Source: Limisphaerales bacterium (GTDB taxonomy: Bacteria > Verrucomicrobiota > Verrucomicrobiia > Limisphaerales > SIBE01). Taken from it: a stretch of DNA of 42,474 nt. Shown here one piece after another: positions 1 through 38,069 of the stretch. The first letter of the stretch is position 1. Each line of letters opens with the position of its first letter. The DNA lies in NCBI GenBank assembly GCA_044225505.1, contig JBGAIN010000065.1, positions 1 to 42,474 on the forward strand. Reading direction: 5' to 3'. The notes under the pieces were generated by a model. The model saw only the letters and a list, made by a program, of their open reading frames with translations. It was not told where the DNA came from and did not search any database. A program made the translations under genes and the position numbers.

Positions 1-152
1 CTGGATACCCACCTTCCGGTGGAGGGGTTGTAATAACGGTGGCCTGTTATTGCATCTGGAAAATCCCGGTACAAGGGTTTTTTGCTCGCACGGCGGCGGC
101 GGCGCGGTCCTCCCATCGGCGGACGACGCTGCTTTGACGACAGCAACCTCAC
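1..152 (-). CDS. Orphan Rhs tip cassette, 5' part only (runs off the left edge)
   Basis: Manual translation from GTG at 152: [50 protein letters not shown]. Contains the Rhs-associated core motif. Confidence 0.8.
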   Translation of the reverse strand, partial: MRLLSSKQRRPPMGGPRRRRRASKKPLYRDFPDAITGHRYYNPSTGRWVS

Positions 153-200
153 GGCCAGAAGCTTACACCCACCAGCGGCAGCTAAAAGGACAATCAACCT
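45..200 (-). repeat. Conserved Rhs-orphan leader, copy 1
   Basis: Clearly similar to 3712-3870, 5852-5958 and 7037-7180. Joined directly to the GGCCACCGTTATTAC Rhs block. Confidence 0.9.
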
Positions 201-234
201 TCTGGCCCTGTGTAGATGCCTGGCCTTCGCAAAG

Positions 235-534
235 TTAAGGCGGCGGCTGGCGGTGCAGCCAGTAGCGCGGTCGGCGATGCAGGTGCATCACGGCTTTGAT
301 ATACAGCGCGTCGGCACGCACGCTGTAAACAATGGCGTAGGGAAAACGATCGAAATTGAGCTTGCGATTCTCGCCGCGGATCTTTCGCCAGCGTTCCGGC
401 TCAGCCACGATCCGGCGCAACGTGCGTTCGAACTGATCCAGGAAGTCGTCACCAAGACCGGATTGCCGTTGCTCATACCAGAGTGCCGCGGCTTCCAACT
501 CCTCGTCTGCCTCAGGATGGCTGACGACGCGCAT
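235..534 (-). CDS. Type II toxin, RelE/ParE family
   Basis: 99 aa from ATG 534: HPEADEELEAAALWYE..GLGDDF..FPYAIVY..AVMHLHRRPRYW. Overlaps the upstream antitoxin. Confidence 0.9.
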   Translation of the reverse strand: MRVVSHPEADEELEAAALWYEQRQSGLGDDFLDQFERTLRRIVAEPERWRKIRGENRKLNFDRFPYAIVYSVRADALYIKAVMHLHRRPRYWLHRQPPP

Positions 535-757
535 GGAGCTTATTCCGGATGTCTTGGACAACTTGCTCCACGGGACGGCAGATGACTTGGCCCTCCTCGA
601 CTTCCCCGGAACGCCGGTCAATAACCTCTTGCCACTGCGTTTCGGCGTCAGAGTCCGCGGTGTCGTCCAGGCTGGCGATGAGTTTGCGGGCCAGGAACGC
701 TCGGTCCTGCTCGGGCAGGGCCAGCACCTCGGCCACTTTCTCGGCAGCAATGCTCAT
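512..757 (-). CDS. Putative addiction-module antitoxin (TIGR02574-like)
   Basis: 81 aa from ATG 757: LALPEQDRAFLARKLIASLD..W..VIDRR pattern. Directly upstream of the RelE/ParE gene. Confidence 0.85.
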   Translation of the reverse strand: MSIAAEKVAEVLALPEQDRAFLARKLIASLDDTADSDAETQWQEVIDRRSGEVEEGQVICRPVEQVVQDIRNKLHARRQPS

Positions 758-912
758 GCAGCAAAATATCGGCGTCTGTGAGTGGTCTGGCAAGTCTTCA
801 TTCCCACTCGAGTCGGACCTCCTGCTGGAGCGGGCGTGTGAGGGCGAGGGACTAGAACGAAGGCAGAAGCGAAAAGGACCTGAAGACGGCGGCAGAACGA
901 CAAGCGAGGATA

Positions 913-1143
913 GGGATCAGTCCCGCAGATACGCATGTCCGGTGTTCGGCAGAAGTTTCTCACGATTATTTGTGCCACTCTCGGACACATCCGGCGGCGT
1001 AGCCAGCCGCGCCCATCATCAAGGACGCGCCGTGGTAAATGGCTCCAGGATATTGCAGTCTCAGCTTTCTCGCCATGCCAAGAACTTGCCCCTGCCTTAC
1101 CTCAAGCGTCAAGACCTATATTGCATTATGCGGGACTGACCCC
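913..1143 (-). mobile_element. Miniature non-autonomous element derived from a RAYT/Y1-type transposase, copy A
   Basis: 15-bp terminal inverted repeats (GGGATCAGTCCCGCA / TGCGGGACTGACCCC). Internal 36-aa ORF at 1076-966, MARKLRLQYPGAIYH-GASLMMGAAGYAAGCVREWHK, whose start resembles RAYT N-termini. Confidence 0.75.
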
Positions 1144-1147
1144 TTCG

Positions 1148-2220
1148 TCACTTCGCGTCATAGCTAAAGCTGCGGCTCTGCCCATTGGGATAGCTCGTTG
1201 CGCTCAACCGTTCCGTCGCATTGACGTAACTGTTGGTGAAGCTGCCCAGGACATTGGTCACCGTCGTGACACGGCCCAAGGCATCATAGCTGACATTCAC
1301 GGCCACGCCGTTGATGGCGCGACTCTGCACCCGGCCCAAGACGTCGTAGCTGTAGCTGATCACGTCATTGGCCAACGGCCCGTCGACCGCCGCCAGACGC
1401 CCCGCTCCCAACCCGCCTGCTGGATGATAAGTGTAGCTGGTAACGCCGATCCCATCGGCCATGCTCGCCAGCCGATTGTAGCCGCTCTCGTAAGTGAATG
1501 CCACGGCCGGGGTCGTGATCAAAGCGTTGGTGTAGGTCACCTGGCGCAGGTTATCGTCCAGCCAATACTGATACTGGGTCGTCTGCCCTTTGGCGTCGGT
1601 CACCGCTTTCAGCCGGCTCGTCGTCGCTTCATAGACATACTTCACTTCCGTTTGATCCGGATAAACCTTGGCCGTTAAGCGCCCCTGCAAATCCCGGTTC
1701 CAGCTTGTCGTCCGGCCTAAAGGATCGGTCAGCGCGTTCAACGCTCCGCAACTGCACCAGTCAAAGGCCGTCACCCGTCCGGCTGCATCTTCCAGGGCGA
1801 TCATCTGTCTTAGCGGATTGTAAATGCGGGTTGACCACCGACCGCGCCGATCCCGGCTCAAGACCGGGTCGAGCTTGTTGTAAACGGTCTGCGTGTAGGT
1901 CCCGTCCGGGTATGCTGACACCGGCCAACCGATCCAGGGCATCATATTCAAAGGCCAGCGTATACCCTTCCGAGTCGGTCATCGTTTGCACGCGGCCATA
2001 GGTGTCATAGGTCAGGCTCGTGGTCGCGTTGGTCACCGCACCCACGATATTGGTCAAGTAACCATTGGGGTCATAGACAAAGGTCATCGTTTGCTCAGCG
2101 CGTTGGTCACGGCCGTGAGTTGCCCGGGTAACCATTGTATCCAAAATAGTTGGTCTGCCCAGAGCCCCGTCCACCCGGCTCAAGGGCAGATGCTGCCCAT
2201 TGTAAGTGAACCGGGCGGAG
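1148..2220 (-). pseudogene. Internal Rhs/YD-repeat fragment, frameshifted
   Basis: YD repeats (YDALGRVT, YDVLGRV, YDTYGRV) spread over at least two frames. No N-terminus and no RYYxP core or tip. Confidence 0.85.
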
Positions 2221-2222
2221 TA

Positions 2223-2452
2223 GGGGTCAGTCCCGCAGATACGCATGTCCGGTGTTCTGCAAAAGTTTCTCACGATTATTGGAGCCACTCTCGGATAGAT
2301 CCGGCGGCGGTAGCCAGCCGCGCCCATCATCAAGGACGCCGCGGTAAATCGCCCCTGGATATTGCAGCCCTCAGCTTTCTCGCCATGCCAAGAACTTGCC
2401 CTGCCTTACCTCAAGCGTCAAGACCTATATTGCATTATGCGGGCCTGACCCC
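2223..2452 (-). mobile_element. Miniature RAYT-derived element, copy B
   Basis: Direct repeat of 913-1143 with the same TIRs and flanks (TA left, TTCG right). Internal mini-ORF is frameshifted after MARKLR. Confidence 0.75.
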
Positions 2453-3041
2453 TTCGCCATCACGAGGTCTTCGTAGAAACACGTAGTCGATCGCGATAAA
2501 GATACTGATCACGATCGACAAGAGATCCGCAACAAGCCACAGCACATTTCGAGTGTATAACTCTTTCAAATAAACCTCGCCAGAATGAATCGAAAGAGCT
2601 GAAGCAGTGTTTCCAAAAGGAGATGGTTCTCGGGGACTGAGCTTAACCTCCACACGCCCCGAGCCTCCCATTAACTCAAGGTCCCCCAATCAGGAAATAG
2701 AGATCATTTCCTGATTTAATAGCTGGCTTTAACGTCAGACTATTTTGTGAGAAGCATAGGTTTCGGTTTGTCAAAATGCTCAAACTAGCAGCCCAGTTCG
2801 CTTTAGGACCAATCTGCCAATTCATGAAGTTTTCCCTAATCTCTTGCGATACCGTTCCAGCATCGCACCGAAGATAGAGGAAATAATGGCCCGGACCAGC
2901 GGGATTCCAAACCAGGGCGTTCTCGCCAGTCGGGTTCACGATTGCCTCGACGCTCAGACACGGGTCCTGCCTAAAAATCTGGTGAGCCACCAAGCAACTC
3001 AGCAGAAACACGACCCCCATTACTCGGATGATGTAGGCCAT
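2435..3041 (-). pseudogene. Putative membrane-anchored immunity protein, split by a frameshift near 2685
   Basis: ORFs 2676-3041 and 2435-2689 overlap at a C5 run. Hydrophobic segments at both ends. Starts just after the toxin stop at 3049. Confidence 0.6.
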
Positions 3042-3048
3042 GATTGCG

Positions 3049-3822
3049 CTAGAACGACAATCCGGAACCAGGTACCGAGGTCACGCATTTGTACCGATTG
3101 CACCCATTGTCGTTTAATGCTTTCAACGCGTCCGCCACATTCCCAGGCATCGTTGCCGTCATGCCAGTCGTGTTCAACAGGTCGGTCAGTATGGACACAG
3201 ACAAAAGAGTGCACTTACAAGGCGTTTTCTTCTGCTTATCGGGATCAAGTCCGGCGGCAATCGCCTGCTCAGTGTAGTTCCCGCAATTCGCGTTCAGGCC
3301 GTTGTAATTCGGCGGAGTTGCTAAAAGCGGCTTAAACCAAGCTGCAACTTTGCCTTCATCAATGCAATCGGAGCAAATCGTGCTGCTGGGCGTACCAAGA
3401 TTCGCGATGTCAACTTCCGGAGAAGCGTGCCAATCGACCTGACTAGTCCCCATATCATTTCCTGACGGGTAAGCACTGACGTAGGTATTGTTATCGCACT
3501 TCAACGCGCTGTGTCCGTAGAGCGTTATATAAGGACGCACGGGAATTCTGCTCCCTGGCAACCAAGTCAAGAGGCAGCACTTTTCACCAAGCTTGTCGAA
3601 CTTATTAGCTGGGTCATTGTTGACAAAACCGTAAAGGTTCCTACCCCCAGTTTCCCCAATCGGGTCTCTGGAAAGCCATCGTCCGGTGGAGGGGTTGTAA
3701 TAACGGTGGCCAGATACTACACCGCAAAAACCCGGGTACAAGGGTTTTTTGCTCGCACAGCGACGGCGGCGGCGCGGGCCTCCGATGGGCGGACAACGCT
3801 GCTTTGACAACAGCAGACTCAC
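3049..3822 (-). CDS. Orphan Rhs tip with a putative permuted papain-like (His..Cys) toxin domain
   Basis: Leader from GTG 3822, then [22 protein letters not shown]. Tip contains GHSAL and NYNGLNANC. Confidence 0.75.
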
Positions 3823-3870
3823 GGGCAAGAGCCTACGTCCCCCAGCGGCAGCTAAAAGAAGAATCAGCCC
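3712..3870 (-). repeat. Conserved Rhs-orphan leader, copy 2
   Basis: Aligns with copy 1 over about 155 bp, with one 3-nt insertion. Confidence 0.9.
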
Positions 3871-3996
3871 TCTTGACGCTCCCGGGCATGGCACTGCCCG
3901 TGGCTGCGCGGCGTCGCGGATCTCGAGGGCGGTCATAGGCCGGTGAGTTTATTCCGCAAGCCCACGAGCGAATCGACGACCCGGTCACTCACAACC

Positions 3997-4311
3997 TCAG
4001 TAGAGTGGGAACACCGTTACCTTTCGATCGTCGGTCACCCAAACCCGAAACGCGTTGCCCGGTGTTGCCTGTTCGAACGTGAACCGAAACGCCCATTCGT
4101 TCTCTTCTCTGTCGGCCACGACTTCGTATTTAGCCTCTCCCGGTAAGCCACGTTCCCTCAAGGCGTCCAGTGCAATCTTCTCAGCCGCTTCCTTGTCTAA
4201 GCCAGCGTGCCGACGAACCGCCCCTCCCGTTGCGCAGCCGAGCCCCATGATGCAGACGGAAAGAGCCATACAGAGAAGAACACGCATAAATGCTTTATGG
4301 CTATCGGGCAC
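3997..4311 (-). CDS. Putative lipoprotein immunity protein
   Basis: Hydrophobic signal ending GLGC and a PepSY-like DKEAAEKIALDAL segment. Overlaps the toxin stop. Confidence 0.7.
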   Translation of the reverse strand: MPDSHKAFMRVLLCMALSVCIMGLGCATGGAVRRHAGLDKEAAEKIALDALRERGLPGEAKYEVVADREENEWAFRFTFEQATPGNAFRVWVTDDRKVTVFPLY

Positions 4312-4846
4312 CTTTCTGTCGACACCCCTCTTGCTTCATGACCTTTTGTTCGTAGACAAGAAACTCCTCCATCTTCTTATGACAGGTAGGGCTGCTCGCA
4401 CCGCCGTTTGCAAGGAGTTGTTTAACGGCGTCGTAATCCTGCTGGTACTTAGCGCATTCGCTCGCCTTCCGGTCGACATCTGGTCGGAAATCCGGTGGGT
4501 AGACGACGGTTCTACAAGCGTCACATGGCACGACTTCCGCAATATGCTCACTCTCTTGCTTGCGGATAATCTCGTCGAACTCCGGGCATAGCGTCTCGGG
4601 AAGCCATGCTCCAAATCCGAGCACGCAAGGGCAGATTTGACCCTTGTAGCAATAGACACCTCCTCCCCTCTCCCGCGACAGTGGATCGGACTCATTTACC
4701 TTCCAACAGATGCTGGTGCAGGACTCCGCGAGACCCAGCGGATCGTGAGCATTTACAGGAGAATTACGGACGAAGGCGTACAAATTGAGTCCCGCCTCCT
4801 CTCCTGCTGGGTCCCTGGAAAGCCACCCTGCTGCGCTAGAGATCAT
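4301..4846 (-). CDS. Orphan Rhs tip without the leader; Cys-rich, degenerate zincin-like motif
   Basis: WLSRDPAGEEAGLNLYAFVRNSPVNAHDPLGL, then QESEH and a downstream ECAKY. ATGA overlap with the upstream gene. Confidence 0.75.
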   Translation of the reverse strand: MISSAAGWLSRDPAGEEAGLNLYAFVRNSPVNAHDPLGLAESCTSICWKVNESDPLSRERGGGVYCYKGQICPCVLGFGAWLPETLCPEFDEIIRKQESEHIAEVVPCDACRTVVYPPDFRPDVDRKASECAKYQQDYDAVKQLLANGGASSPTCHKKMEEFLVYEQKVMKQEGCRQKGAR

Positions 4847-5202
4847 TTTGCTTGGCCAAGCTCATTTGTCCGCAGGAAAACTTTCTTTTCGATAATCAGG
4901 CGATTCGTTTTGAGGATATTCAAAGCCCGATTGGCCTGGTTTTTGTCGACCCAAATGTCGTAAACCTTGGAACCGTCAAACGATGCTTCAATGCCGTGCT
5001 TTGCCAGAACTTCATGGATTTCCGTCTGCTCTGGAAGCAAATCCCAGCGGACCCAGCCGATTGCAACCAGCTGCTGTTCGGCTGGTTTTATCGCTGCCGA
5101 AGGGGCCGGTTGCGAACTGCAGCCAGACCAAAGCACTACCAGAAGTGCCGTGACCGCACACCATAACACGCGATCCAGTAAGCCTTTGGGCAAAGTTTTC
5201 AT
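4843..5202 (-). CDS. Putative lipoprotein immunity protein
   Basis: 119 aa from ATG 5202. Signal ends LWSGC. Starts just after the toxin stop at 5210. Confidence 0.7.
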   Translation of the reverse strand: MKTLPKGLLDRVLWCAVTALLVVLWSGCSSQPAPSAAIKPAEQQLVAIGWVRWDLLPEQTEIHEVLAKHGIEASFDGSKVYDIWVDKNQANRALNILKTNRLIIEKKVFLRTNELGQAK

Positions 5203-5209
5203 GAGGCCC

Positions 5210-5923
5210 TCACAAATTTGGAGTCGGGTCTGGAGTTTGAAGGCTCCCAACGGGGGTAGCCGCTGGATCAATGACTTGGAGCACCGTGGCGCTGACTGAG
5301 TCCTTTTCGCAGTTGCAGTCTTTCGGGTTCACTACAGTAATGCGAATATGAAGAACCCGCTTGCCGAGCTGTGGATTGGCCGCTGGCCAATCGTAGTCCT
5401 GAACGATTCTTCCGACCGCAGGACTACACGTCCTGGCACGATTCTTCCAGTTGTCGTGAACTAACGACGGATCGAGTGCGTAAACGTCATACCACTGATC
5501 CGGCTTGGCACCCAGATCTTGGTAACGCTTAGGGGGCCTATTCGTTTTCTCTTCCCATTTAAGCGTCGCAAATCGGTCCTGATCGCTGGGATGATATTCC
5601 AAGTAAATATCGACGCCGAAGAAATGCCCAGGAAAACGGCTTATGGGGTGGGGCTTTGCCTCAATGTCCGTAATGTTGATTCCGACAGCACACTCGCAGC
5701 ACTTACAGTCTTTGTTCTCCTGCTCTCCTAGAGGATCAAATCTATTGACTGGGTCATTACTGACGTAGCCGTAGAGATTACGCCCTCCAATTTCCCCGAT
5801 GGGGTCTCTGGAAAGCCACCGACCAGTAGAGGGGTTGTAATAACGGTGGCCTGATACTACACCGCAAAAACCCGGGTACAAGGGTTTTTTGCTCGCACGG
5901 CGGCGGCGGCGCGGTCCTCCCAT
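5210..5923 (-). CDS. Orphan Rhs tip, toxin domain of unknown type
   Basis: [46 protein letters not shown] followed by a Cys-containing tip. Start codon uncertain. Confidence 0.8.
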
Positions 5924-5958
5924 CGGCGGACGACGCTGCTTTGACGACAGGAGACTCT
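5852..5958 (-). repeat. Conserved Rhs-orphan leader, copy 3 (5'-truncated)
   Basis: Nearly identical to copies 1 and 2 but lacks the TARGCT/GTG part. Lies next to the immunity stop at 5965. Confidence 0.9.
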
Positions 5959-5964
5959 TGCGGC

Positions 5965-6252
5965 TCAAGGCCGAGAATTGCTCGTTACGACAGTAAGGAT
6001 CGCCAGTAGTGTCCAGCCGACGACGTAAATCCACATTAAGGCCTTTAAAGAGGATTTCCGTTGCACTGCAAATTGCAGGCCTGCAATTGCTAGAACTGGA
6101 ACTAGAGGAAGCGCGGCGAACATGAACCAGTAAAACAGGTACCGATAGCTCCAAGGATAAGCGACGCCAGCGTAAAATTGCCGACTGACGGCTACAGTGC
6201 CCAACGCAAGGAGGCCGTTCAGAACAATCATAATGATCGAGAAGCTGCGCAT
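5965..6252 (-). CDS. Putative integral-membrane immunity protein (about 3 TM)
   Basis: 95 aa with three hydrophobic stretches. Starts just after the toxin stop at 6258. Confidence 0.7.
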
Positions 6253-6257
6253 AGGAA

Positions 6258-7142
6258 TTAGCGAGTAATCGACGCATTAGGCCAGGTTGACATGAGATCT
6301 CCAGAGAACTTCTCAATGGAGGGCGAACACGTCTTGTTGAGGTCTTGCTTAGTGCTGACAAATCCCGGGCCTGAGTCGCCCCCAATGTATCCATATTGAG
6401 CAAACGTGACCGCAGCTTGCCAATCATCGAGCCACTTCGTCGGATTGGACAATTTCCACCAATCCACGATCCCCTTAATGTCGGTATAGCCCAGACCACA
6501 AAGGCTGCAAATTACACCAAAGGAGTAGTAGTTCGCGTCCCATGCATTGTAGCACCTCCCTCCAATGGTAACGGTGTTTGGGCATGCGCCGGAGTTTTTG
6601 CCCTTCATATTGTCGTTCCATCCCCATGTCATTGCCCACAAATCCCAACCCTTAGAACCCCGTTCGAGGGCGCTCGGATTTGTTATCAGATCGCCTATGC
6701 CTTGTGCCGCCAGGATGTATGGCTCACACGCGCTTATCTGGTCTTTTCGGCTGAGATTGTGGAACCGATCGGTCATGTTTTGACGAGCCCTTACCAACGC
6801 GTCGCCGACATCGACTCCGCATCCGCAAGCGAGTCCAAGGAAATCAAAGGAGTTGAGTGCATCATTCCCGAGCATCGCGTACAGATTTGCTTGCTCATTC
6901 GCTCCAAATGAACCACTTCGAAGAACACCCCCGGCCACCTTCCTAAGGCGTTTTCCTGCGGATAACTCGAAGCCCGGCTCACCCATTGGGTCTCTGGAAA
7001 GCCATCGTCCGGTGGAGGGGGTGTAATAACGGTGGCCTGTTATTGCATCTGGAAAAACCCGGTACAGTGATTTTCGTTTCGCGCGACGGCGGCGAGAACG
7101 TTCGATCGGCGGACAACGCGGCGATGCCATCGAGAGCTTCAC
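6258..7142 (-). CDS. Orphan Rhs tip, possibly a divergent Ntox44-like domain
   Basis: Leader from GTG 7142, [22 protein letters not shown]. Tip has WD..Y..NY..FG..GY spacing reminiscent of the 8016 tip. Confidence 0.7.
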
Positions 7143-7180
7143 GGCTCTGTAGCCTACGCCAAAGACCCGCAGCTCGAAGG
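7037..7180 (-). repeat. Conserved Rhs-orphan leader, copy 4 (divergent)
   Basis: Keeps TAGGCT..GTG, the CPP/RRRR codons and the FPDAITG junction shared with copy 1. Confidence 0.8.
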
Positions 7181-7301
7181 AAAATCGCCGATCATTGCGT
7201 TGACCGTCTCTGCGATACGGCGCCTTTTGAGCCCTCAAAATCAAGCGCAAGGCCGAATCTTAACGTTAACGACATCACAAGCAACTGACCGGCAGTGACC
7301 T

Positions 7302-7358
7302 GTCGTGGCGACAGTAGAGCTTAAGCGTCGACAGACTTGGATCCACTGACGCCACGAC
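7302..7358. repeat. Imperfect 17-bp inverted repeat (hairpin)
   Basis: GTCGTGGCGACAGTAGA versus the reverse complement of TCCACTGACGCCACGAC, 15/17 matches. Confidence 0.6.
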
Positions 7359-7426
7359 CGTGGCCATTTTGACCAAATCTCGGCCTCTTCACGTCAGGGT
7401 ATGAAATATTCAGGCTAGAGAGCCAC

Positions 7427-8026
7427 TCAGCGACGCTCGGATTTCCCATACACCCGTGGACTGATTTTGATTACGATATCTCCTCGAGGGTCCTGGCCCT
7501 TCTCGGCAAATCTCTCGAACATTTGCTGAGCTTGGGTCCCTGCCGTATTACGAAGGACGACCAGCACGACATTTGGTTCTACATACAGGGAAACAATCTC
7601 TCTGTCTTCGTTACGCTCGAATCCGACCAAACCCAAATCTCGAAAAGTTTTGCGAAGTGATTGAACCTTGTTCGTGAGGGAATCCGCTTCCGCGGAAGTC
7701 AGGGTCTCTTCCCATTTGATCGGTTCTTCAAGACTCGCATGGTAAGCGTGATCACCTGTGCGGACTATCAACCGACCACCCTGGGCTCCGTCAATCAGCA
7801 ATAGTTTGGTGAGAACATTATCCCGCAGTTTATCCGCAAACTCGATCCACTGGGCGAGGTGAACTTCTTTACCTAGTTTTTCAACTTTTGACCGCACCTG
7901 CGAAACCTCTTTATGCCAAGCTGGCTTAGCGCCTTCCGAATCACAAGCCACTGGCAGCAATAGAGACACCAGTATAAAAACATTGGCGAGGCTCCGAACC
8001 GCGAAACTAACAGCACTAAAACGCAT
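7427..8026 (-). CDS. Putative exported (lipoprotein-like) immunity protein
   Basis: 199 aa from ATG 8026. Hydrophobic signal ending LPVAC. Overlaps the toxin stop. Confidence 0.7.
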   Translation of the reverse strand: MRFSAVSFAVRSLANVFILVSLLLPVACDSEGAKPAWHKEVSQVRSKVEKLGKEVHLAQWIEFADKLRDNVLTKLLLIDGAQGGRLIVRTGDHAYHASLEEPIKWEETLTSAEADSLTNKVQSLRKTFRDLGLVGFERNEDREIVSLYVEPNVVLVVLRNTAGTQAQQMFERFAEKGQDPRGDIVIKISPRVYGKSERR

Positions 8027-9635
8027 AGCCCTCCTCTCTCGCATGAGAGTCCCTCGGGTCATCTCCGAAATTCCAGATGTTCGAAAGAAATTTCGCCACA
8101 TCGAATTTGTCATTTGTTATATCTTCGTACGTTTGGAAGGCGCCGGCGCCCTTTTTTGAGAGCAATTCTGGCCATCCAAACGATTTCATTATCGCGCCCC
8201 ATGTAATATTCCCGATGGAATCTCGAAGGTAAGCTTTGTTTTTGTAAATATACCATTTGTTCACGTCCAGATCCTGCTTATAGTCCCACGGACGCCCCGT
8301 TGGGGAATTGGCCAAGACTTCCGGCAAGGACTTGACGTAATCTGGTGCAAGCAGCATCCAGCGCGTTAGAAGCGATGGACGCCAGCCAGGCGGCTTTTTG
8401 TGGCGGTCAACAAACTTCCGCATTTCCGGCTCGAAGTCTTCGACTATGCCAGAATATGCACCGGGTAGGTAATCTCTGTCGTATTTCCAAACCTCCCAGA
8501 AGCGCAGGCAATTCCAGTTTTTGGGTCCATGGGGCCCTTCGATGTACTTTGTCTCGAAAGGCCACCAGGTATTGTCACGACCGATCTCCTTTCCAGTGCG
8601 GTCGTAATAGATGCTGACAAGTCCAAGCGGATCACACTGATCTATCGGGCCATTTGCAACAAAACCGTAAACATTGGCACAAGCAATCTCACCCAGGGGA
8701 TCTCTGGATAGCCACCGTCCGGTGGAGGGGTTGTAATAACGGTGGCCGTAGTAAACCAAATCCGTCTCCAGGTCGGTGTATTTGGTGGACCAGCGGATGG
8801 GGATCGCTGGGCTGATCGAGCTGGTGGCGCGGATGACTTCACGGAAGGGGCCGTACTCGTGCTGCGCGGACGCTTGACCGCTCGCTCCACTGACGTAGGC
8901 CACTACGTTTCCATTCCCATCGTACGCTGGGAAATAAATCGTCCCGCCTGCCGACACAGCTACGAGTCCTCCGACCCCACCCGCCCCTTGCATCGAGCCG
9001 CTCAGGCCCGTTCCCCAGGAGTAAGCCCGCATGAGGGCATCTGCACCGTCAAACTCCGCCACTAAGTTCCAGCCATCCCAAACATACTTCGCTTGCCCCT
9101 GGAGCACGTGAGCGGATTTGTTGTAAGTGTAGATCTGCTTCGATCCTCGCCTGCCTTGGGTGTCGTATTCAAACTTTAGGCTCCGTACAGCAGAGGTCGG
9201 CACTGTGCTTTGGGATGGCACCGCCTCGAGCAGGTTCGCGGCGTCCCGCGTGTAAGTCCAGGGCCCGTCCGAGATCAGGTTGCCGTCCGTGTCGTAGCTG
9301 TAGCTCTCCGACGCTCCGGCCACGAGTAGGTTCCCCGGGACCGTATTGGTCGATCCTCCGCCCACTGCTGTGACGGTTACTCCCTGAGAGACCGGCTCAG
9401 ACCCGTTACTGACCGAGACAGCGCTCTGGAAATACTCACCACGGCGAGTGGCGCTTGGGAAACCCTCGGCTTTACCCCGTGAGATAACCGTGTCAGCGCG
9501 TTTTGAAATAACGCTGGCCCCAAACCGTCTTAAAATTCCTCTCTCGCCGGGCCGCATCGGCCCGGCAGGGGCACGGTTCATTAACGGATAGGCCGCTTCC
9601 GAATATTCCAGATCCAGTTGCCTGGGCATGACCAC
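8016..9635 (-). CDS. N-truncated Rhs protein with an Ntox44-like C-terminal toxin domain
   Basis: [56 protein letters not shown]. Tip has PWDYK..D.IGNITWG..GAG..GDDPRD...GY. The first ~60 codons are not Rhs-like. Confidence 0.85.
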   Translation of the reverse strand: MVMPRQLDLEYSEAAYPLMNRAPAGPMRPGERGILRRFGASVISKRADTVISRGKAEGFPSATRRGEYFQSAVSVSNGSEPVSQGVTVTAVGGGSTNTVPGNLLVAGASESYSYDTDGNLISDGPWTYTRDAANLLEAVPSQSTVPTSAVRSLKFEYDTQGRRGSKQIYTYNKSAHVLQGQAKYVWDGWNLVAEFDGADALMRAYSWGTGLSGSMQGAGGVGGLVAVSAGGTIYFPAYDGNGNVVAYVSGASGQASAQHEYGPFREVIRATSSISPAIPIRWSTKYTDLETDLVYYGHRYYNPSTGRWLSRDPLGEIACANVYGFVANGPIDQCDPLGLVSIYYDRTGKEIGRDNTWWPFETKYIEGPHGPKNWNCLRFWEVWKYDRDYLPGAYSGIVEDFEPEMRKFVDRHKKPPGWRPSLLTRWMLLAPDYVKSLPEVLANSPTGRPWDYKQDLDVNKWYIYKNKAYLRDSIGNITWGAIMKSFGWPELLSKKGAGAFQTYEDITNDKFDVAKFLSNIWNFGDDPRDSHAREEGYAF

Positions 9636-9683
9636 CTCCCTACTGCCGCCAATACTTTATGTCAATCATGAGGACTAACACCC
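9570..9683 (-). mobile_element. Degenerate 5' remnant of a RAYT/Y1-type transposase element
   Basis: MPRQLDLEYSEAAYPLMNR from ATG 9629 resembles MxRxLRxxYPGAxYHVMNR. Preceded by TTGACA (9665-9660) and a TIR-like GGGTGTTAGTCCTCA. Confidence 0.5.
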
Positions 9684-9986
9684 ACGGTTTCCTTCCGTAG
9701 CCGACAAGGTCTCGACCATCTCCGGCAGGGGGAAAAGCGAGCAGTGCTCCGCTTCTTAAGAAATCTTGGCGTCGTCGCGTCTGGGCGTGCGGAACGTATT
9801 CAGCCATCCACCCGAGAGGGAGCGACTGGCCAGAGATATGTCTCACATACCAGGAGCAAATTGCTCCTGGATTCCGTCGCGCTGCTAAGGCGCGCGTTTG
9901 GGGCGATGCCGCAGACCCTCGATCGACAGCTCTGGCTGGAGGTGACGCCCAGCGGTGGGCGGGACGAAGAGCGACGAAGGTGGGGG

Positions 9987-10019
9987 GATTATGATTACGA
10001 GGAGGATTACGATTACGAC
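9987..10019. repeat. Short GATTAC-type tandem repeat
   Basis: GATTATGATTACGAGGAGGATTACGATTACGAC. Confidence 0.6.
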
Positions 10020-10066
10020 GGAAGTTGTTGGGGAATAGAAATATGCGGGGTTACCGACGAGTCTGG

Positions 10067-10111
10067 GCGGAAAAGCGCCAGAGGTCTGGCGCACTCCAAG
10101 ACGCTGACGCG
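10067..10111 (+). repeat. REP-like hairpin, copy 1
   Basis: GCGGAAAA-GCGCCAG AGGT CTGGCGC-ACTCCAAGAC. Related copy at 14733. Confidence 0.65.
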
Positions 10112-10435
10112 CCATAACTAAGGTCTCTTAAAAATTCACTAGCAGCACCGTATGAGGTAGGGCCCGTGGTATCGCAGCCAGATTCCGGCCGTGCGCGCTT
10201 CGTCGTTCGCTGGTCACGGCTCCCTGACAGCTTGGTCACAGCGTCGCGAGGCTGTGAGCAAGCCGTTTACAGGCTGTCTTGAGGCTGCCAGCGGTGTAGG
10301 AAACACCGCTCCGGTAGGTGGGGCGAGCGGGTTTGTCCGCAAATTGCGGACAGAGTGTGAGACAAATCGCGGTTGCCTGGCCGTTTTGGGAACGGCCCGT
10401 TCCCAAATTCTTCAACCGCAAGGTGACAAAAAGTC

Positions 10436-12663
10436 TCGCGACACGTCGGTCAGTAAGAAATGAACTATGAACTACATAAATCGCTGCCGGACATGATTCT
10501 CTGTGATCCGGTCCTGCTTTTCGCAGCAGGTATTCTATGGGAGCGGGCGTTTGGCGGGCGACCAGTGTCACTGCCAAAGGTCCGAAGCCTCCTAGACAAT
10601 GTAGCCAGCCTGGAAGCCTCACTCCGGGTCCCGGCGCTAGAATCGGACGGTAGGGTCAAAGAAGTCTCACACTCGCAAGCATCGTCAGTCTCAACAAGCC
10701 ACACGAGGCTGTTCAAGGCTTGGACCAAAATGGTAAGCGGTCAGGTTCGGACTCTGACTTTTAGTCCGACGCGAATGCTGCACCGCCGGTGTATAGAGTG
10801 GGCCTAACCCGTCCTGTGATTCATGTGGAACGTGGAAAAGCCGCCATTCATTCCCGCCTTGGCTGGTCCAAGGCAGGCCCACCGTAAGGCAAGCCCAGGG
10901 GAAGCGGCAATGAGAGGATCGAACAAGCCAAGGCCGGTCTGTAATGGACCGGATATGCCCACGTCGATCTGGTCTCTCTTTGCAGGAGAATCCGTAGAAT
11001 CTTCATCACCGAGGAAAAGCAAATGACGATTGATCTTCACCGGTCAGTTGGTGCGTCCTCGACCCAGAGCCAGGATTGGCGATCCCTTCCCTGGGATCAG
11101 ATCCGAGCACGGGTCCGAAGACTGCAGATGCGTATTGCAAAGGCAATCAAGGAAAAACACTACGGCAAAGCCCGTGCTTTGCAGTGGATTCTCACGCACT
11201 CACGCTCGGCCAAACTCTTGGCCGTCCAGCGAGTGACCACCAATAAGGGAGCCCGCACACCAGGGGTCGACAAAAAGGTGTGGCGTAGCAATCAACAAAA
11301 GATGGCCGCCATCGGCCTCCTCAAGCGACGCGGTTACAAACCGCAGCCGCTTCGGCGTATCTACATCAAAAAGAAGAACGGCAAACTAAGGCCGCTCTCC
11401 ATTCCGACGATTCTGGACCGCGCTTTCCAAGCCCTCTACATGCTAGCCCTCCAACCCATCGCCGAGACTTGTGCCGACAAGAACTCCTACGGGTTTCGGG
11501 AAGGCCGTTCGTGCGCCGACGCCATTAAGCAATGCTTCATTGTTTTGGCCAGGCGCACCTCACCACAGTGGGTTCTCGAAGGCGACATCCGAGCCTGTTT
11601 TGATCAGATCTCGCAACCCTGGATGAGACAAAACATCCCTATGGACCAACGAGTTCTCCGTCAATGGCTTCAAGCCGGATATATGGAAAACAACCGGCTT
11701 TTCCCCACCACCGCTGGCACCCCTCAGGGCGGCATTGCCTCCCCAGTGCTGGCTAACTTAACCCTCGACGGGATGGAAGGCACGATCCGGGCCGCCATCG
11801 ATCCCAAGCGCGACAAGGTCAACTTCATCCGTTATGCGGATGACTTCATTGTGACCGCCGCCAGCAAGGAGATCCTGGAGCAGAAAGTCAAACCAGCCGT
11901 CATTCAATTCCTCGCCCAGCGCGGACTCCAGCTCTCCGAGGAAAAGACCGTGATCACTCCTCTCACCGAGGGATTTAACTTCCTCGGGCAAAATATCCGC
12001 AAATACGGACAGAAACTGCTGATCAAACCAACTCGACAAAGTGTCCGCAGCGTGTTGGAAAAGGCCAAGGAACGGATTAAGCACAATCATGGCCAATGCG
12101 CAGCCGCTCTGATCCACAAACTCAATCCGCTCCTCCGAGGGTGGGCCAACTATCATCGGCACGTCGTCTCTAAACGCGTCTTTGGACGAGTAGACTTCTA
12201 CGTGCACGCGATGCTCCGGCGCTGGGCGCGCCGAGAACATCCTAACAAATCCTCTACCTGGATTCGCAAGCGCTACTTCTCCGCCGATCCCACCGGTGCC
12301 TTTTCGGTTCGAACTAAGAACCCTCAAGGCCTGGCGGGCGTGCTGAAAGTCTACCGCGCAGCCCAGACCACGATCCAACACCATATCAAGGTCCGAGGAG
12401 CCGCCAACCCTTACGACCCTCTTTATACAGACTATTTCGAGAAACGGCGATGCTTCGCTTGGCGCACCTATCCCATCAGTTCCACTCGGACCTTTCGGTC
12501 GAGGCAGGATAGGTCAGTCTCTCGATCGTCTCCTCTCTCATCCTGATTGCCGGATCACCTCCGCTGAGGTCGGTCTTTGCAGAGGCTCGAGCCGTATGAG
12601 GGGAAACTCTCACGTACGGTTCTTAGGGGGGTCTGGGCGGGCGACCGCTCAGATCTACCCGGT
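10436..12663 (+). mobile_element. Group II intron (IIB, chloroplast-like class by IEP appearance)
   Basis: DV GAGCCGTATGAGGGGAAACTCTCACGTACGGTTC at 12589-12622 and DVI ending CTACCCGGT. EBS1 GACTTT (10756-10761) sits in a stem-loop and pairs with the exon end AAAGTC (10430-10435). Confidence 0.9.
11023..12546 (+). CDS. ltrA: Group II intron reverse transcriptase/maturase lacking the HNH endonuclease domain
   Basis: VRRLQMRIAKA N-terminal extension, TPGVD, RPLSIP, GTPQGG, RYADD, LNPLLRGWANY. Ends shortly after NPYDP with no HNH motif. Confidence 0.95.
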   Translation: MTIDLHRSVGASSTQSQDWRSLPWDQIRARVRRLQMRIAKAIKEKHYGKARALQWILTHSRSAKLLAVQRVTTNKGARTPGVDKKVWRSNQQKMAAIGLLKRRGYKPQPLRRIYIKKKNGKLRPLSIPTILDRAFQALYMLALQPIAETCADKNSYGFREGRSCADAIKQCFIVLARRTSPQWVLEGDIRACFDQISQPWMRQNIPMDQRVLRQWLQAGYMENNRLFPTTAGTPQGGIASPVLANLTLDGMEGTIRAAIDPKRDKVNFIRYADDFIVTAASKEILEQKVKPAVIQFLAQRGLQLSEEKTVITPLTEGFNFLGQNIRKYGQKLLIKPTRQSVRSVLEKAKERIKHNHGQCAAALIHKLNPLLRGWANYHRHVVSKRVFGRVDFYVHAMLRRWARREHPNKSSTWIRKRYFSADPTGAFSVRTKNPQGLAGVLKVYRAAQTTIQHHIKVRGAANPYDPLYTDYFEKRRCFAWRTYPISSTRTFRSRQDRSVSRSSPLSS

Positions 12664-12816
12664 ACCAACTACGGTCATGCACCGACGGCTGTGTTGCTTC
12701 TGACTTCAGCGCCTCCAATTCGTCTCGCCCGTCAACCCATCTTCAACTCCGGTCCACTCGCACCGTTTCCTCCCGCTGCCGCGCCGGTCAGATGCCGACG
12801 ACGGGCCGCTGTCGGT

Positions 12817-14529
12817 TTAGTCGACGATGGCCTTGCGCGTCGTAATCACAGGGTCGCCCCGGCCGTTAACGACATGCCGAATCCCACTCCCCGGCTTTCC
12901 GTTCAAGCGGATCGTGACCATGTGACGCATCTTGACGCCAGGGACCGCAGGGGTTTCGATCGCATTCTCTGCCACGACCGGTGCCGCATAGAAAACGCAG
13001 TAAACTCCTAACCCCCACGCTTCGTGCCGCGTCACGCTGTCAGCGACTTTATAGGAAGCGTAACCGTCCGTCTCCCCATGCCGCCAGGCGTCCTGGCTGG
13101 GCGGATCGTACGGCATCTCCGATTGGTAAAAGTAGACCCGTCCGCCATTCCCGTTCCAGACGGTCTGGTACTCTTGGCAATGCTCGACGAACAACCCGTA
13201 GATCGTCACATTGTCGCCGTTCACAATCAGGCCGGTGCGGTTCGGATTCTTTGACCAGCCAACGCCTCGGCCATGGTCCGCGCGCCAGAGCCAAAAGTTG
13301 TCTCCGATCACATCCTGAGAATGAATAACCATCATGCACGACGCGCTCCCCGCTTGCGCCCCGCCGACGCGACAGAAAATGTCCCAGAGGCAAATCGGAT
13401 CGGTCGCATGCGATTTGCGGCTGCCTGGCTCCCCAATTTGGATCAGCTGGCTTGAGTTCGTCGCCCCCGCTTCCACGAGGATTCCGGCAATCTTGACCCC
13501 GTCAACATCCGCCACCTCCAGTGCCGAGGTCCCGTGCACCGGCAACAACGTCGCGTAACCCAAGCCGAGCACGACCGTGTCGGGACGAGCGACACGGAGG
13601 GAGTTCTCCAGGCGATAGATACCCGGCGTGAAAAGCAGGTGTTTCCCTGAACTCAGCGCTGCGTTCAAGCTCTCCGCCGTATCAAACTCCGGCTTGGCCA
13701 GGTAGAACTGCTCGATCGGAATCACCTTGGCCGGCGTCGACCCAGTCGACCACGTGATCCCGCGTGTTCCGCGCCCAGTAAAGCTCGGCACCGCTACGTA
13801 GTAGTGGTCCTGGGCGTCCACGAACAAAAAGGGCTTCTCCCGAACGAGGGGCGTCTCCTCGATCACCGTGTACGGCGCCTCGGGCCAGGCTCCCGAGGGA
13901 GGATTCATCGTCCCGACAAAGACCATGTTCCAGGAACCTCCTTTCCAGGCCCCCCACTCGGCATTGCGCGAAAACCATTGTTGTTGCGAACCGGAGTTCA
14001 CTTGTCCGTCGATCTTGCAGTCAGCCAGGAAACCGCCGCTCGACCAACCGCCATCCCAAAGGTTCATCGATCCGCGCACGTGGACCCGCCGTAATGCCGT
14101 CGCTTGGGACACCGCCCAAATATTTGTGCCGCCGTCTTCGGAAGGGATCACCGCCAGGTTCTCCGCGCAGCGCCAAAAGTTACAGGTGGCATTGTGATTG
14201 GCCATCCAACGCGCTTTCGAGCGCACCGCGCCGGTGATGGTCACATCGTCCGGACTTTGTCCGAGACCGCTCACCTGCATATAGAATCCGACTTGGACAT
14301 CCAATTGGTAGTGGCCCGGCTTGAACAGGTAAGCGACCCGATTGGACCCAAACTGACTCGGCTCTTGCCGGCTGAAAACGGCATCGATCCGGCTTTGGAT
14401 ATTGGTCATTGAAGGATCGAAGACGAAAACGTTCGGGCCGAAGTCTGGAGTGGTGCTAGCGCCTCGCGCGGTGACAATGGCCAGCAGCAACAGCAGAATT
14501 GGAGAAGGGTTCAACTTCATAATCTTCAT
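12817..14529 (-). CDS. Secreted glycoside hydrolase family 55 (beta-1,3-glucanase-like)
   Basis: Signal peptide; PDFGPNV, NFWR, WAVSQA, SQQQW, WRADHG, YFYQSEMPYD. Start at 14529 or 14520. Confidence 0.85.
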   Translation of the reverse strand: MKIMKLNPSPILLLLLAIVTARGASTTPDFGPNVFVFDPSMTNIQSRIDAVFSRQEPSQFGSNRVAYLFKPGHYQLDVQVGFYMQVSGLGQSPDDVTITGAVRSKARWMANHNATCNFWRCAENLAVIPSEDGGTNIWAVSQATALRRVHVRGSMNLWDGGWSSGGFLADCKIDGQVNSGSQQQWFSRNAEWGAWKGGSWNMVFVGTMNPPSGAWPEAPYTVIEETPLVREKPFLFVDAQDHYYVAVPSFTGRGTRGITWSTGSTPAKVIPIEQFYLAKPEFDTAESLNAALSSGKHLLFTPGIYRLENSLRVARPDTVVLGLGYATLLPVHGTSALEVADVDGVKIAGILVEAGATNSSQLIQIGEPGSRKSHATDPICLWDIFCRVGGAQAGSASCMMVIHSQDVIGDNFWLWRADHGRGVGWSKNPNRTGLIVNGDNVTIYGLFVEHCQEYQTVWNGNGGRVYFYQSEMPYDPPSQDAWRHGETDGYASYKVADSVTRHEAWGLGVYCVFYAAPVVAENAIETPAVPGVKMRHMVTIRLNGKPGSGIRHVVNGRGDPVITTRKAIVD

Positions 14530-31676: not shown

Positions 31677-32798
31677 ATGAAAAGGCAATCGATTACCTCC
31701 GTTCTCCTCGCCGTCCTAACTCTCGCCACACCTTGGCTCGGTCCAAACGCCTCCGGCGCGGACGCGGTCAAGATGGGATTCATCTATGTCGGTCCCAAGG
31801 ACGATTATGGATATAACCAGGCGCATTCCGAAGGCGCTGCTGGCGTGCAGAAGAGTCCGCGGGTCAAAGCAGTCGAAGAAGCGAGCGTCCCGGAAACAAC
31901 GGCGGTGCAGGAGACCATGCGCAACATGATCAACCTGGATGGCGCAGCGATCCTGTTTCCAACGTCCTTCGGTTACTTCGATCCGCACATCCTTAAAGTC
32001 GCCAAACAATACCCGAAAGTGCAGTTCCTGCACTGCGGCGGACTGTATACCGAAGGCAAACACCCGAAGAACGTCGGGAGCTACTTCGGTTACATTGATG
32101 AAGCCGTTTATATCTCCGGCATCACTGCCGGTTACACCTCCAAGTCTGGCAAATTGGGTTTCATCGCAGCCAAGCCGATCCCTCAGGTATTGCGGAACAT
32201 CAACGCCTTCACGCTCGGAGCTCGCAGCGCCAATCCCAAAGCGACCGTCCAAGTCATCTTTACGGGCGACTGGTCGATGCCGGTCAAAGAGGCTGAGGCC
32301 GCCACCAGCTTGATCAATCAGGGAGTCGATGTTCTGACGTGTCATGTCGACAGTCCGAAAGTCATTCTCGAGACGGCTGAGCGCCGCGGCATTTACGTTT
32401 GCGGATACCACGCCAATGGTTCAAAGCTCGCACCCAAAGGCTATCTCACCGGTGCGGAATGGAACTGGTCCAAGGTCTACACCCAATACGCGGAGATGGT
32501 GATGCAAGGCAAAACCCTGGCGGCCGGCACCATTCCCCACCTGGTGCGCGGCGGACTCAAGGAAGGGTTTGTTAAATGTTCGGACTTCGGTCCCGCGGTG
32601 AGTGAGACCGCCCGCAAAGCCGCGGCGGCGGCCCTGGCCAAATTCATGGACGGGAGCATGGTGATCTTCCAGGGCCCACTCACAGACAACACAGGCAAAA
32701 CCATCCTTCCTGCCGGAAAAGGATTCAAGCAACAGGACCTCGAATTGGAGTCGATGGGATGGCTCGTCGAAGGAGTGATCGGCAATACGAAGAGCTAG
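31677..32798 (+). CDS. BMP-family ABC transporter substrate-binding protein
   Basis: GFIYVGPKDDYGYNQAH, TSFGY, INAFTLGA. Confidence 0.9.
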   Translation: MKRQSITSVLLAVLTLATPWLGPNASGADAVKMGFIYVGPKDDYGYNQAHSEGAAGVQKSPRVKAVEEASVPETTAVQETMRNMINLDGAAILFPTSFGYFDPHILKVAKQYPKVQFLHCGGLYTEGKHPKNVGSYFGYIDEAVYISGITAGYTSKSGKLGFIAAKPIPQVLRNINAFTLGARSANPKATVQVIFTGDWSMPVKEAEAATSLINQGVDVLTCHVDSPKVILETAERRGIYVCGYHANGSKLAPKGYLTGAEWNWSKVYTQYAEMVMQGKTLAAGTIPHLVRGGLKEGFVKCSDFGPAVSETARKAAAAALAKFMDGSMVIFQGPLTDNTGKTILPAGKGFKQQDLELESMGWLVEGVIGNTKS

Positions 32799-32826
32799 CC
32801 GTCTCAATCCCTACCCAAACACGCGC

Positions 32827-33954
32827 ATGGCGAATCCCGTCCCCAGCACCGAGGCCGCGGCCTTGAGTTCTCTGACCGAGGCGGCTGCGGCCAGTTCGGA
32901 CCCACCCTCGCGGAACTGGCGACCCGTGTTGGAAGCGGTCTCCTTGCCTGTGGGAGCGGTTCTGGTCGCTTTGGCGTTGTTTGGCATCTTTTGCGCCGCG
33001 CAAGGCGCGAATCCGATCGCCGTTTTCCGGGCGATTCACACGGCGGCATTCGGCAGTTGGTACTCGTTTCAGAATACGTTGGTGCGCGCCGCGCCGTTGA
33101 TGTTGACCGCGCTTTGCACAGCCCTTCCCGCCCGACTTGGGTTAGTCGTCATCGGTAACGAAGGCGCCTTGGTGATGGGCGGATTGGGCGCCATCGCTGC
33201 CGGGCTGGCGCTAGCCACGGCTCCCTTCGCCCTCTCCCTCGCGGGCATGGTTTTGGCCGGGATCATCGCGGGCGGACTTTGGATCACACTCGTCGGCCTG
33301 TTGCATTACCAACGGGCGGTCAATGAGACCATCAGCAGCTTGCTCATGAACTACATTGCCATTGCCATTCTCAACCATCTCGTGAACGGGCCGTTGCGTG
33401 ATCCCAGCAGCCTTAACAAACCTTCCAGCTATCCCATCCCGGATGAACATCTCTTGCCCACGTTAGGAGAGTCGAACGTTCATGCCGGCCTGATCTTCGG
33501 TCTCCTGGTCTGCTTGATCGCGTGGGTTGTGATGGAGCATACCACGTTCGGCTTTAAGGTTCGCGTCATCGGCGGCAACGTCCGTGCCGCGCGGATGGCC
33601 GGCCTGCCCGTGGCTCGGCTTGGACTGGTGACCTGTTTCCTGGCGGGTGCCTGCGCGGGACTCGCTGGAATGGTCGAAGTGGCCGCCGTCCACGGCCGAG
33701 CCAACGAGTCTTTGGCCGCGGGTTATGGCTACGCCGGAATCCTGGTGGCTTTCGTGGCCAGACACCGTGGCCTGCCTATTATCGTCGCCGCCATCGTGCT
33801 GGGAGGAATACTGGCCAGCGGCGGCATCCTGCAGCGCCAGTTTCAATTGCCCGATTCGACCATCCTGGTGTTTCAAGGGCTCGTGTTTCTCTGCATCCTG
33901 TTCAGCGATTCACTCTACGGGCGATTCAAAATCTTCAAGGAGGGTGGCGTATGA
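32827..33954 (+). CDS. ABC transporter permease (nucleoside/CUT2-like)
   Basis: Multi-TM; IGNEG, NETISSLLMNY, GYGYAGI. Confidence 0.9.
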   Translation: MANPVPSTEAAALSSLTEAAAASSDPPSRNWRPVLEAVSLPVGAVLVALALFGIFCAAQGANPIAVFRAIHTAAFGSWYSFQNTLVRAAPLMLTALCTALPARLGLVVIGNEGALVMGGLGAIAAGLALATAPFALSLAGMVLAGIIAGGLWITLVGLLHYQRAVNETISSLLMNYIAIAILNHLVNGPLRDPSSLNKPSSYPIPDEHLLPTLGESNVHAGLIFGLLVCLIAWVVMEHTTFGFKVRVIGGNVRAARMAGLPVARLGLVTCFLAGACAGLAGMVEVAAVHGRANESLAAGYGYAGILVAFVARHRGLPIIVAAIVLGGILASGGILQRQFQLPDSTILVFQGLVFLCILFSDSLYGRFKIFKEGGV

Positions 33955-34877: not shown

Positions 34878-35000
34878 GCCTGTCATGAACCACACCCTTA
34901 TCATTCAAAGCACCTTCCGGCCACTGCTGGAACTCGGCTCACTCCCTGTCCACGTCGAGGGCTCAAACCTCAACCCCATCCTTTCCTCTCAAGCCGCGGC

Positions 35001-35684: not shown

Positions 35685-35687
35685 TCC

Positions 35688-37229: not shown

Positions 37230-37351
37230 CCCATGGCACGCCCGCTTCTCCAAATGCCACCGCAGAACGATTGGCGCCTCTCGCGTCCGAAGATTCCGAA
37301 GAAGATCGCGTTTCCAGAAATCCCCGCCCGGCCTTTCCCTCGCTCGCACTG

Positions 37352-38035: not shown

Positions 38036-38069
38036 ATCTCAACCACCGCTGTCCCTGCGACACAAAATT

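Follow-up and report, generated by a model that had tools for sequence, protein, structure and literature searches.

Non-Rhs leaders on orphan Rhs toxin tips in a Limisphaerales genome: probable ends of a tip-swapping integrative element

The stretch of DNA analyzed here (42,474 nucleotides; hereafter the window) is an entire contig, C140, of the assembly of a Limisphaerales bacterium (G000; 95% complete). Its minus strand carries an array of orphan Rhs toxin tips, four of which are fused in frame to a leader of non-Rhs sequence. Our analysis suggests, with a probability of roughly 0.7, that this leader is the right end of an integrative element that swaps toxin tips, and that the array is a record of repeated integrations whose element bodies have been lost.

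Such an element would comprise a helix-turn-helix (HTH) regulator, a CHC2/Toprim primase, one or two tyrosine recombinases annotated as 'XerC' and often a toxin-antitoxin (TA) pair; its circular form would join this module to a leader, a short Rhs core end, a toxin tip and an immunity gene. Because the end of the leader mirrors conserved core codons, leader and core together would make up a symmetric site for the recombinase, with 7-8 bp of spacer between the arms. If this site recombined with a resident Rhs gene through the identical spacer there, the gene would receive the incoming tip in frame, and the old tip would be left behind the leader. Each circle entering at the head core would add a tip, an immunity gene, a module and a leader, and repeated entries followed by loss of the bodies would yield the order seen in the window: head Rhs, immunity gene, and then one leader-tip-immunity unit after another. 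The leader would also provide an in-frame start codon, so that displaced tips may be made inside the cell.

A fixed, symmetric junction between leader and Rhs core

An earlier note on this DNA described four orphan tips sharing a non-Rhs leader with one fixed junction, and this description is borne out. In each, the leader abuts the core residues G-H-R-Y-Y on the minus strand (R codon at 38, 3705, 5845 and 7031), the junctions are identical and the frame is open; the junction pattern matches four times in the window and not once in 100 shuffles. Genome-wide, 12 leader copies are found on five contigs (four each on C140 and C174, two on C81 and one each on C64 and C77), and all 12 join the Rhs core at the same Gly codon, so the prospect that the leader occurs with no link to Rhs falls away. 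Upstream of the conserved motif, all 12 carry non-Rhs sequence in place of core homology. The leader is likewise not a part of ordinary Rhs genes: Rhs cores of relatives have their normal upstream sequence, and ordinary long-core orphans occur in genomes G495 and G025. TIGR03696, the Rhs core C-terminal motif, scored above its cut-off in all five window open reading frames (ORFs) tested, with a variable tip following.

Other parts of the earlier description change. Homology to the larger Rhs gene, put at about 47 bp, spans a 125-nt stretch to the DPxG core end (74-78% alike); the gene itself is present at 8016-9635 but is truncated (539 aa). Position 5923, taken as the start of a tip, is an internal ATG in a 5'-truncated copy without the GTG that is conserved at 152, 3822 and 7142. 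The leader proper begins at a GATT.TCCTT edge and reaches the Gly codon after about 150-160 nt; the extra ~120 nt on five copies, that at 7142 included, belongs to a separate repeat, which at least six other contigs carry without Rhs. The GATT.TCCTT edge is common to 10 copies and lies 43-45 nt ahead of the conserved start codon; the other two copies are truncated.

The leader is conserved as DNA, and its peptide is not under purifying selection. Among 11 copies, the nonsynonymous difference (pN, 0.27) is close to the synonymous one (pS, 0.35), compared with a pN of 0.05 in the adjoining core, and differences are spread evenly over the three codon positions (0.29, 0.29, 0.29). The codon-level conservation that the note proposed to look for is thus not seen.

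The junction is a 9-8-9 inverted repeat in which the leader's last codons mirror the R-Y-Y codons. The left arm is TGCAATAAC, or TGTAGTATC in the V-V-S type of leader, and the right arm is GTTATTACA. The sites and leaders of the window are as follows.

29..54, minus strand: junction site 1, 9-8-9, TGCAATAAC / AGGCCACC / GTTATTACA, a putative recombinase core site
55..195, minus strand: leader 1, with a TTAGCTGC motif at 178-185, TAAGCT at 160-165 and GTG at 150-152
60-85, minus strand: A-tract/T-tract inverted repeat of leader 1, whose tip is removed by the contig end
3696..3721, minus strand: junction site 2, symmetric, TGTAGTATC / TGGCCACC / GTTATTACA
3722..3865, minus strand: leader 2, with TTAGCTGC at 3848-3855, TAGGCT at 3830-3835, GTG at 3820-3822 and the A-tract repeat at 3726-3752
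5836..5861, minus strand: junction site 3, symmetric
5862 to about 5957, minus strand: leader 3, 5'-truncated
7022..7047, minus strand: junction site 4, symmetric
7048..7186, minus strand: leader 4, with CGAGCTGC at 7169-7176, TAGGCT at 7151-7156 and GTG at 7140-7142

Arm symmetry is 6-8 of 9 positions in all 12 leader copies. Taken together with a site in genome G723, the copies average 7.4 at a spacer of 8, whereas the other spacers between 3 and 15 give averages no higher than 3.6, and none of 20,000 synonymous-codon randomizations attained the observed symmetry total (seven distinct arm pairs). Ordinary cores from loci in other genomes (n = 48) score 0-4 of 9, and leaders of the same class in G723 and G692 score 8 of 9, both pairing an AGA codon with ATC. 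The spacer is GGCCACC in 10 of the 12 leader sites and in all three head Rhs cores, so that partner sites there would agree in their spacer; the two G723 sites share GGCCTAA. Tyrosine-recombinase sites typically consist of two inverted arms separated by 6-8 bp, and the 9-8-9 junction, as read from its sequence, has this shape. The ordinary core, as target, has the spacer and right arm without a good left arm, scoring 2-3 of 9 at spacer 8 and about 5 of 9 at spacer 6.

Other candidate sites were rejected. A match to a host dif-type site fails because ATAA and TTAT lie 10 bp apart here, where the dif consensus has 6. An 11-7-11 A-tract repeat upstream of the junction, a candidate for the crossover, shows poor symmetry in type-B leaders and is kept only as a possible accessory site. 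The lone outside match to the site pattern in 145 order genomes (G487) is chance.

The exact leader was not found in 60 relatives, 12 family genomes and 145 order genomes, and 400 class genomes gave one weak match. Leader searches of genome contigs and of viral contigs returned no match, and a short A-tract pattern matched metagenome contigs 13 times, never at a leader. A TIGR03696 survey of 151 order genomes, continued in 20 of the regions, found ordinary or signal-peptide-led orphans and never this leader, and every cluster returned from an atlas look-up was either unnamed or Rhs. Neither longer fused versions of the 7142 leader nor long proteins carrying tip 3 turned up when searched for; both are weak negatives.

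Recombinase modules beside leaders in other genomes

A protein search with the leader alone returned five outside homologues, 85-92% identical and each with a different tip. In protein P0003 (85% identical over the query region) the C-terminus of a PF00589 recombinase (aa 2-42) runs in frame straight into the 5' edge of the leader. A similar arrangement is seen at loci L153 and L154 (G644), where one ORF of about 640 aa joins a recombinase in frame to leader, core and tip. Of 486 matches to a profile, the best 150 were taken up. Most of these are short proteins composed of a non-Rhs head, a core end and a tip, and the short head ends in x-x-S/T-G in 117 of 139 scored protein matches, a count inflated by selection with a profile that itself contains the motif. 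Same-phylum genomes with such heads include loci where the leader-tip unit comes after a recombinase gene; at one locus (L134, G160:C1), four units of one family follow the recombinase in both orientations. The recombinase passes the NCBIfam PRK01287 cut-off and fails those for true XerC and XerD. Its subfamily occurs in 9 of 301 phylum genomes. For the element primase, a set of 251 phylum genomes and one of 251 order genomes each yielded 9 with a match. In two genomes with primase matches (G595, G639) and in G250, no recombinase or Rhs core was found in the stretches examined.

The module lies upstream of the leader in G560, G851, G034 and other genomes. Contig C4 of G560 carries a full-length Rhs gene with tip A, immunity gene A, an HTH gene, a CHC2/Toprim primase and a recombinase, then leader, core end, tip A, immunity gene A, the same module again, and leader, core end and tip B. 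The direct repeat measures 7237 bp and has both ends inside the core. Leader plus tip A matches the full-length gene from AATGGCT on, and tip B departs at the next base, which places the crossover within these 7 bp even though about 60 bp of similar core were available. The order in G851 and G034 is Rhs, primase, recombinase, leader and tip, and in G457, G823 and G484 the recombinase is followed by a leader. Leader families at these loci join the core at fixed points other than that of the G000 leader. Several elements have a TA pair inserted after the recombinase and ahead of the leader, and a ParE pair occupies the same slot before leader 1 in the window.

A sequence motif may connect the recombinase genes with the leaders. 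Of 14 windows around these genes, 11 have exact TTAGCYGC, following a pyrimidine tract, no more than 260 nt from the recombinase C-terminus, compared with 1.6% of 4000 controls (17 loci were given and 14 scored; G560, G580b and G644 were left out, of which G560 and G580b carry the motif). The motif was first noticed in phylum-level loci, so that the fair test is the order-level set fetched after it had been fixed, in which it is present in six of six windows. It also occurs at the left end of the module and in the primase linker, and may be an iteron or a regulator site. At the 5' edge of the G000 leaders it is exact in two of seven and has 1-2 mismatches in the other five. The G692 leader has exact TTAGCYGC followed by TAnnnT, 7 nt and ATG, as in G000, and the symmetric site as well. 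With the symmetric junction and the recombinase adjacency in homologues, this shared motif supports the earlier suggestion of a site-specific recombination site. Rather than a stand-alone cassette head, however, the leader is more plausibly one end of an autonomous element of larger size.

In Proteobacteria, the module is found with long toxin-like genes on one side and small downstream genes on the other, and in all three large proteobacterial plasmid loci opened it adjoins CdiA-like or other long toxin genes. Record NZ_CP072857 (Lonsdalea populi) is circular, measures 11,289 bp and contains modules, TA genes, immunity genes and nuclease tips preceded by leader and minimal core; at one junction out of two, the inverted arms are perfect over 8 bp. 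We consider it slightly better than an even bet that a widespread class of small self-replicating integrative elements (HTH, primase and PRK01287-type recombinase) catalyzes the exchange of polymorphic-toxin tips, that the end of each lineage mirrors a different ultraconserved Rhs or CdiA stretch, and that non-Rhs leaders on orphan tips across phyla are scars of this process. If so, toxin genes would have been turned into attachment sites. The finding puts forward a candidate enzyme family together with its 26-bp site and circular form, making tip exchange accessible to a simple plasmid assay. The proposal would also address a common annotation puzzle, namely why short proteins labeled 'RHS repeat-associated core' have odd N-termini and why toxin loci are accompanied by extra 'xerC' genes. 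An enzyme able to join domains in frame at a protein motif might also be useful as a tool.

Mini-Rhs tips at L079, L080 and L078 are led by hydrophobic, signal-peptide-like N-termini, and in some elements, with leaders at L149, L173, L177 and L185, the leader itself encodes a peptide of this kind. Displaced tips with such predicted leaders might be secreted alone.

Weighing the readings

Several observations count against reading the G000 leader as the end of an integrative element. No element-type recombinase or primase was found in G000. None of its 11 PF00589 matches lies on an array contig, and a weak primase match on C59 looks like host DnaG. The direct tie between leader and recombinase is a single protein, P0003, known from its protein sequence alone. 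A recombinase-end relic before the 3822 leader is not significant (hidden Markov model E 0.16), nor is one seen by eye in G723, which had no tblastn match. Other leader families do not have the 9-8-9 form (22 of 24 non-ordinary rows score 4 or less) and gave no extended blastn match to the G000 leader. Arm covariation is not significant (13 rows; 155 of 500 shuffles), and GGCCACC is present in none of six long Rhs cores checked in G000. With a matrix derived solely from G000 leaders, only 4 of 14 windows after a recombinase had p<0.05, as did 2 of 12 at the first try. Finally, the assembly may have rendered a circle as the tandem seen in G560, although the junction must exist even then. The system in G000 looks decayed and the array a relic, since there is no module, no such spacer in the six long cores, a stop directly after the core in two leader copies and an apparent interruption of a third by a transposase ORF (C64). 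Repeats break the G000 contigs, so missing parts may be unassembled.

Integrons have a cassette array with the newest unit at its head and inverted-repeat sites, and the array resembles them in all three respects. An integron-like system would use the same site as the proposed element and differ in the origin of the array: solo units of core end, tip, immunity gene and leader would be mobile, excised between neighboring sites by a recombinase acting in trans, and the array would be an active reservoir. The spacer shared by leader sites and head cores is compatible with this, leaders are mosaic (leader 1 changes type within TGTACC), and TA and Fic genes adjoin leaders. However, mosaic breakpoints also lie elsewhere (C174:4451), the stops and interruption mar the units, and no such enzyme was found in G000, so active shuffling there is at most putative. 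As to the comparison of cassette order and search for circles suggested in the earlier note, contigs of four sequencing runs, which are short, show no clear circle junction or re-ordering; runs from three studies contain parts of the array, and no RNA data set was listed as containing it. Unlike integrons, the array has no IntI/attI platform beside it, its 26-bp inverted repeats are of duplex type and lie inside a reading frame, and its leaders fold weakly (z 0.3 to -2.1 against shuffles, not better overall). The array is not an integron, and we regard the integron-like account as improbable.

It is also not a member of the rAID class of Bacteroidales (PMC12247911), which, in the part of that paper available, shares with the proposed element a tyrosine recombinase, an array of short co-oriented defense genes and conserved intergenic motifs. 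There, orphan immunity genes lie behind one recombinase; here, the units hold toxin tips with immunity genes, fused to an Rhs core, no recombinase adjoins the array, and in relatives recombinase and primase go together as a module that is repeated.

We give still less credence to the leader being mainly a dedicated N-terminal peptide, an export tag or expression head that makes tips stand-alone mini-toxins. A GTG or ATG start codon stands at one place in 9 of 11 copies, with a TAnnnT hexamer 7-8 nt upstream; indels after it are all multiples of three, those before it 1-2 nt; and the frame has no stops where 3.6 are expected. The many homologues with short non-Rhs heads and the internal expression of orphan tips in Salmonella, as given in the accessible part of PMC7043789, point the same way. 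However, a control frame is likewise stop-free (2.0 expected), most of the triplet indels fall within a CGC run, no sigma-70 consensus promoter was found at the leaders, and the even codon-position differences argue against selection on the peptide. The conserved (A/V)(I/V)(S/T) residues would be expected from translation of the DNA mirror. The peptide is basic and without a hydrophobic stretch, and an export tag is not supported, whereas the open frame and fixed start are modest evidence of translation and lend the expression module modest support. The Salmonella Rhs-CT/immunity TA modules resemble the window in that tips are possibly made from their own start codon; in what could be consulted of that paper, promoter and start lie within the Rhs core, and here they would come from a non-Rhs element end.

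Least probable, and already weakened, is the reading that unrelated DNA became fused to an Rhs tip once, long ago and by chance, that RecA-type duplication then copied the product, and that tips were swapped through short core homology; the rarity of the exact leader and the published homologous displacement model (PMC2935791, seen in part) are in its favor, but it leaves unexplained the mirror symmetry through different peptides, the G723/G692 site form, TTAGCYGC and the recombinase adjacency.

To our knowledge, explanations of tip gain in Rhs and CdiA have hitherto invoked hypothetical circles that recombine by homology, and no enzyme is known. In the portions available, Jackson et al. 2009 (PMC2935791) propose that circles displace Rhs tips via homologous recombination and note no integrase with Rhs, and Kirchberger et al. 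(PMC5361080) give no integrase evidence for effector displacement in Vibrio, which they compare with integrons. As in the former model, the element proposed here would line up displaced tips behind the head gene, the old tip being shunted downstream by one crossover with a circle; unlike it, the core fragment has a fixed start, the site is symmetric, and relatives hold a primase/recombinase module. Zhang et al. 2012 (PMC3482391), as far as accessible, report XerC/D genes beside polyimmunity loci, and an additional file may list element-type loci. RefSeq annotates the module gene by gene in Paraburkholderia, Enterobacter, Janthinobacterium and Lonsdalea, with PRK01287 'XerC' beside a CHC2/Toprim primase, HTH and SymE; unlike in those genomes, the module was not found in G000. 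No treatment of this module as a tip-swapping element was found in the literature, with few subscription papers within search reach, and a term search of the available parts of PMC3150448, PMC3414803 and PMC8138268 gave no mention of primase. A published description may exist, since the module is common in annotations.

Layout of the array and neighboring features

The array is headed by the truncated Rhs gene, behind which lie the tips and small genes. Its remaining features are listed here.

about 235-540, minus strand: ParE toxin, directly upstream of leader 1 and paired with the antitoxin (pair 235..793)
512-793, minus strand: addiction-module antitoxin, directly upstream of leader 1
about 900-1150 and 2220-2460, strand not applicable: two ~250-bp repeats, presumably RAYT-like, flanking YD-repeat fragments
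1148-2333: frameshifted YD-repeat fragments between the two ~250-bp repeats
2676..3041, minus strand: putative immunity gene of tip 2, by position; no Pfam family
3049..3822, minus strand: leader peptide, Rhs core end and tip 2 (257 aa counted from GTG)
3997-4311, minus strand: putative immunity gene of the leaderless tip, by position
4301-4846, minus strand: leaderless fifth tip, whose core begins G-W-L-S-R-D-P
4843..5957, minus strand: unit of core end, tip 3 (to 5210) and putative immunity gene (4843-5271)
6258-7142, minus strand: leader peptide, core end and tip 4, with a putative immunity gene at 5965-6252
7190..7325, minus strand: separate palindrome-rich repeat, not Rhs-specific
7427-8113, minus strand: putative immunity gene of the head Rhs, by position (head region 7427..9635)
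8016-9635, minus strand: truncated head Rhs (539 aa) with an ordinary core, GGCCACC spacer, no mirror arm and an Ntox44 tip

None of the five candidate immunity proteins matched a Pfam family, and their role is assigned by position. A contig of sequencing run X6 diverges from the window at 3867, near the edge of leader 2. In the YD-repeat fragment at 1915-2161, three to four runs show the same small indels relative to the assembly; because several runs share them, some breaks there may be strain or assembly differences.

The ~120-bp palindrome-rich repeat (TGTC-N5-GACA, TTAACGTTAA) at 7190-7325 recurs at C149:38625-38749 and on C65, C245, C197, C150 and C254. Copies of the RAYT-like repeat also lie at about 9550-9720 and on C174, C79 and C245, where they cap several other Rhs fragments; what these repeats appear to resemble is a RAYT transposase gene at its 5' end. 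The head Rhs ORFs on C140, C174 and C79 all begin in frame with a RAYT-like remnant. In G495 (C1:2081500-2124700; L067-L069), about 20 ordinary orphan Rhs tips are found, most of them frameshifted in a core poly-C stretch.

A structured RNA search of 1-14000 returned group II intron families only, and a group II intron with a reverse transcriptase ORF (11023-12546) lies at 10512-12663 on the plus strand, just upstream of the array head. Farther along, 31677-39677 holds a probable ABC transporter and cysteine-hydrolase-like gene cluster (read by eye), unrelated to the leaders.

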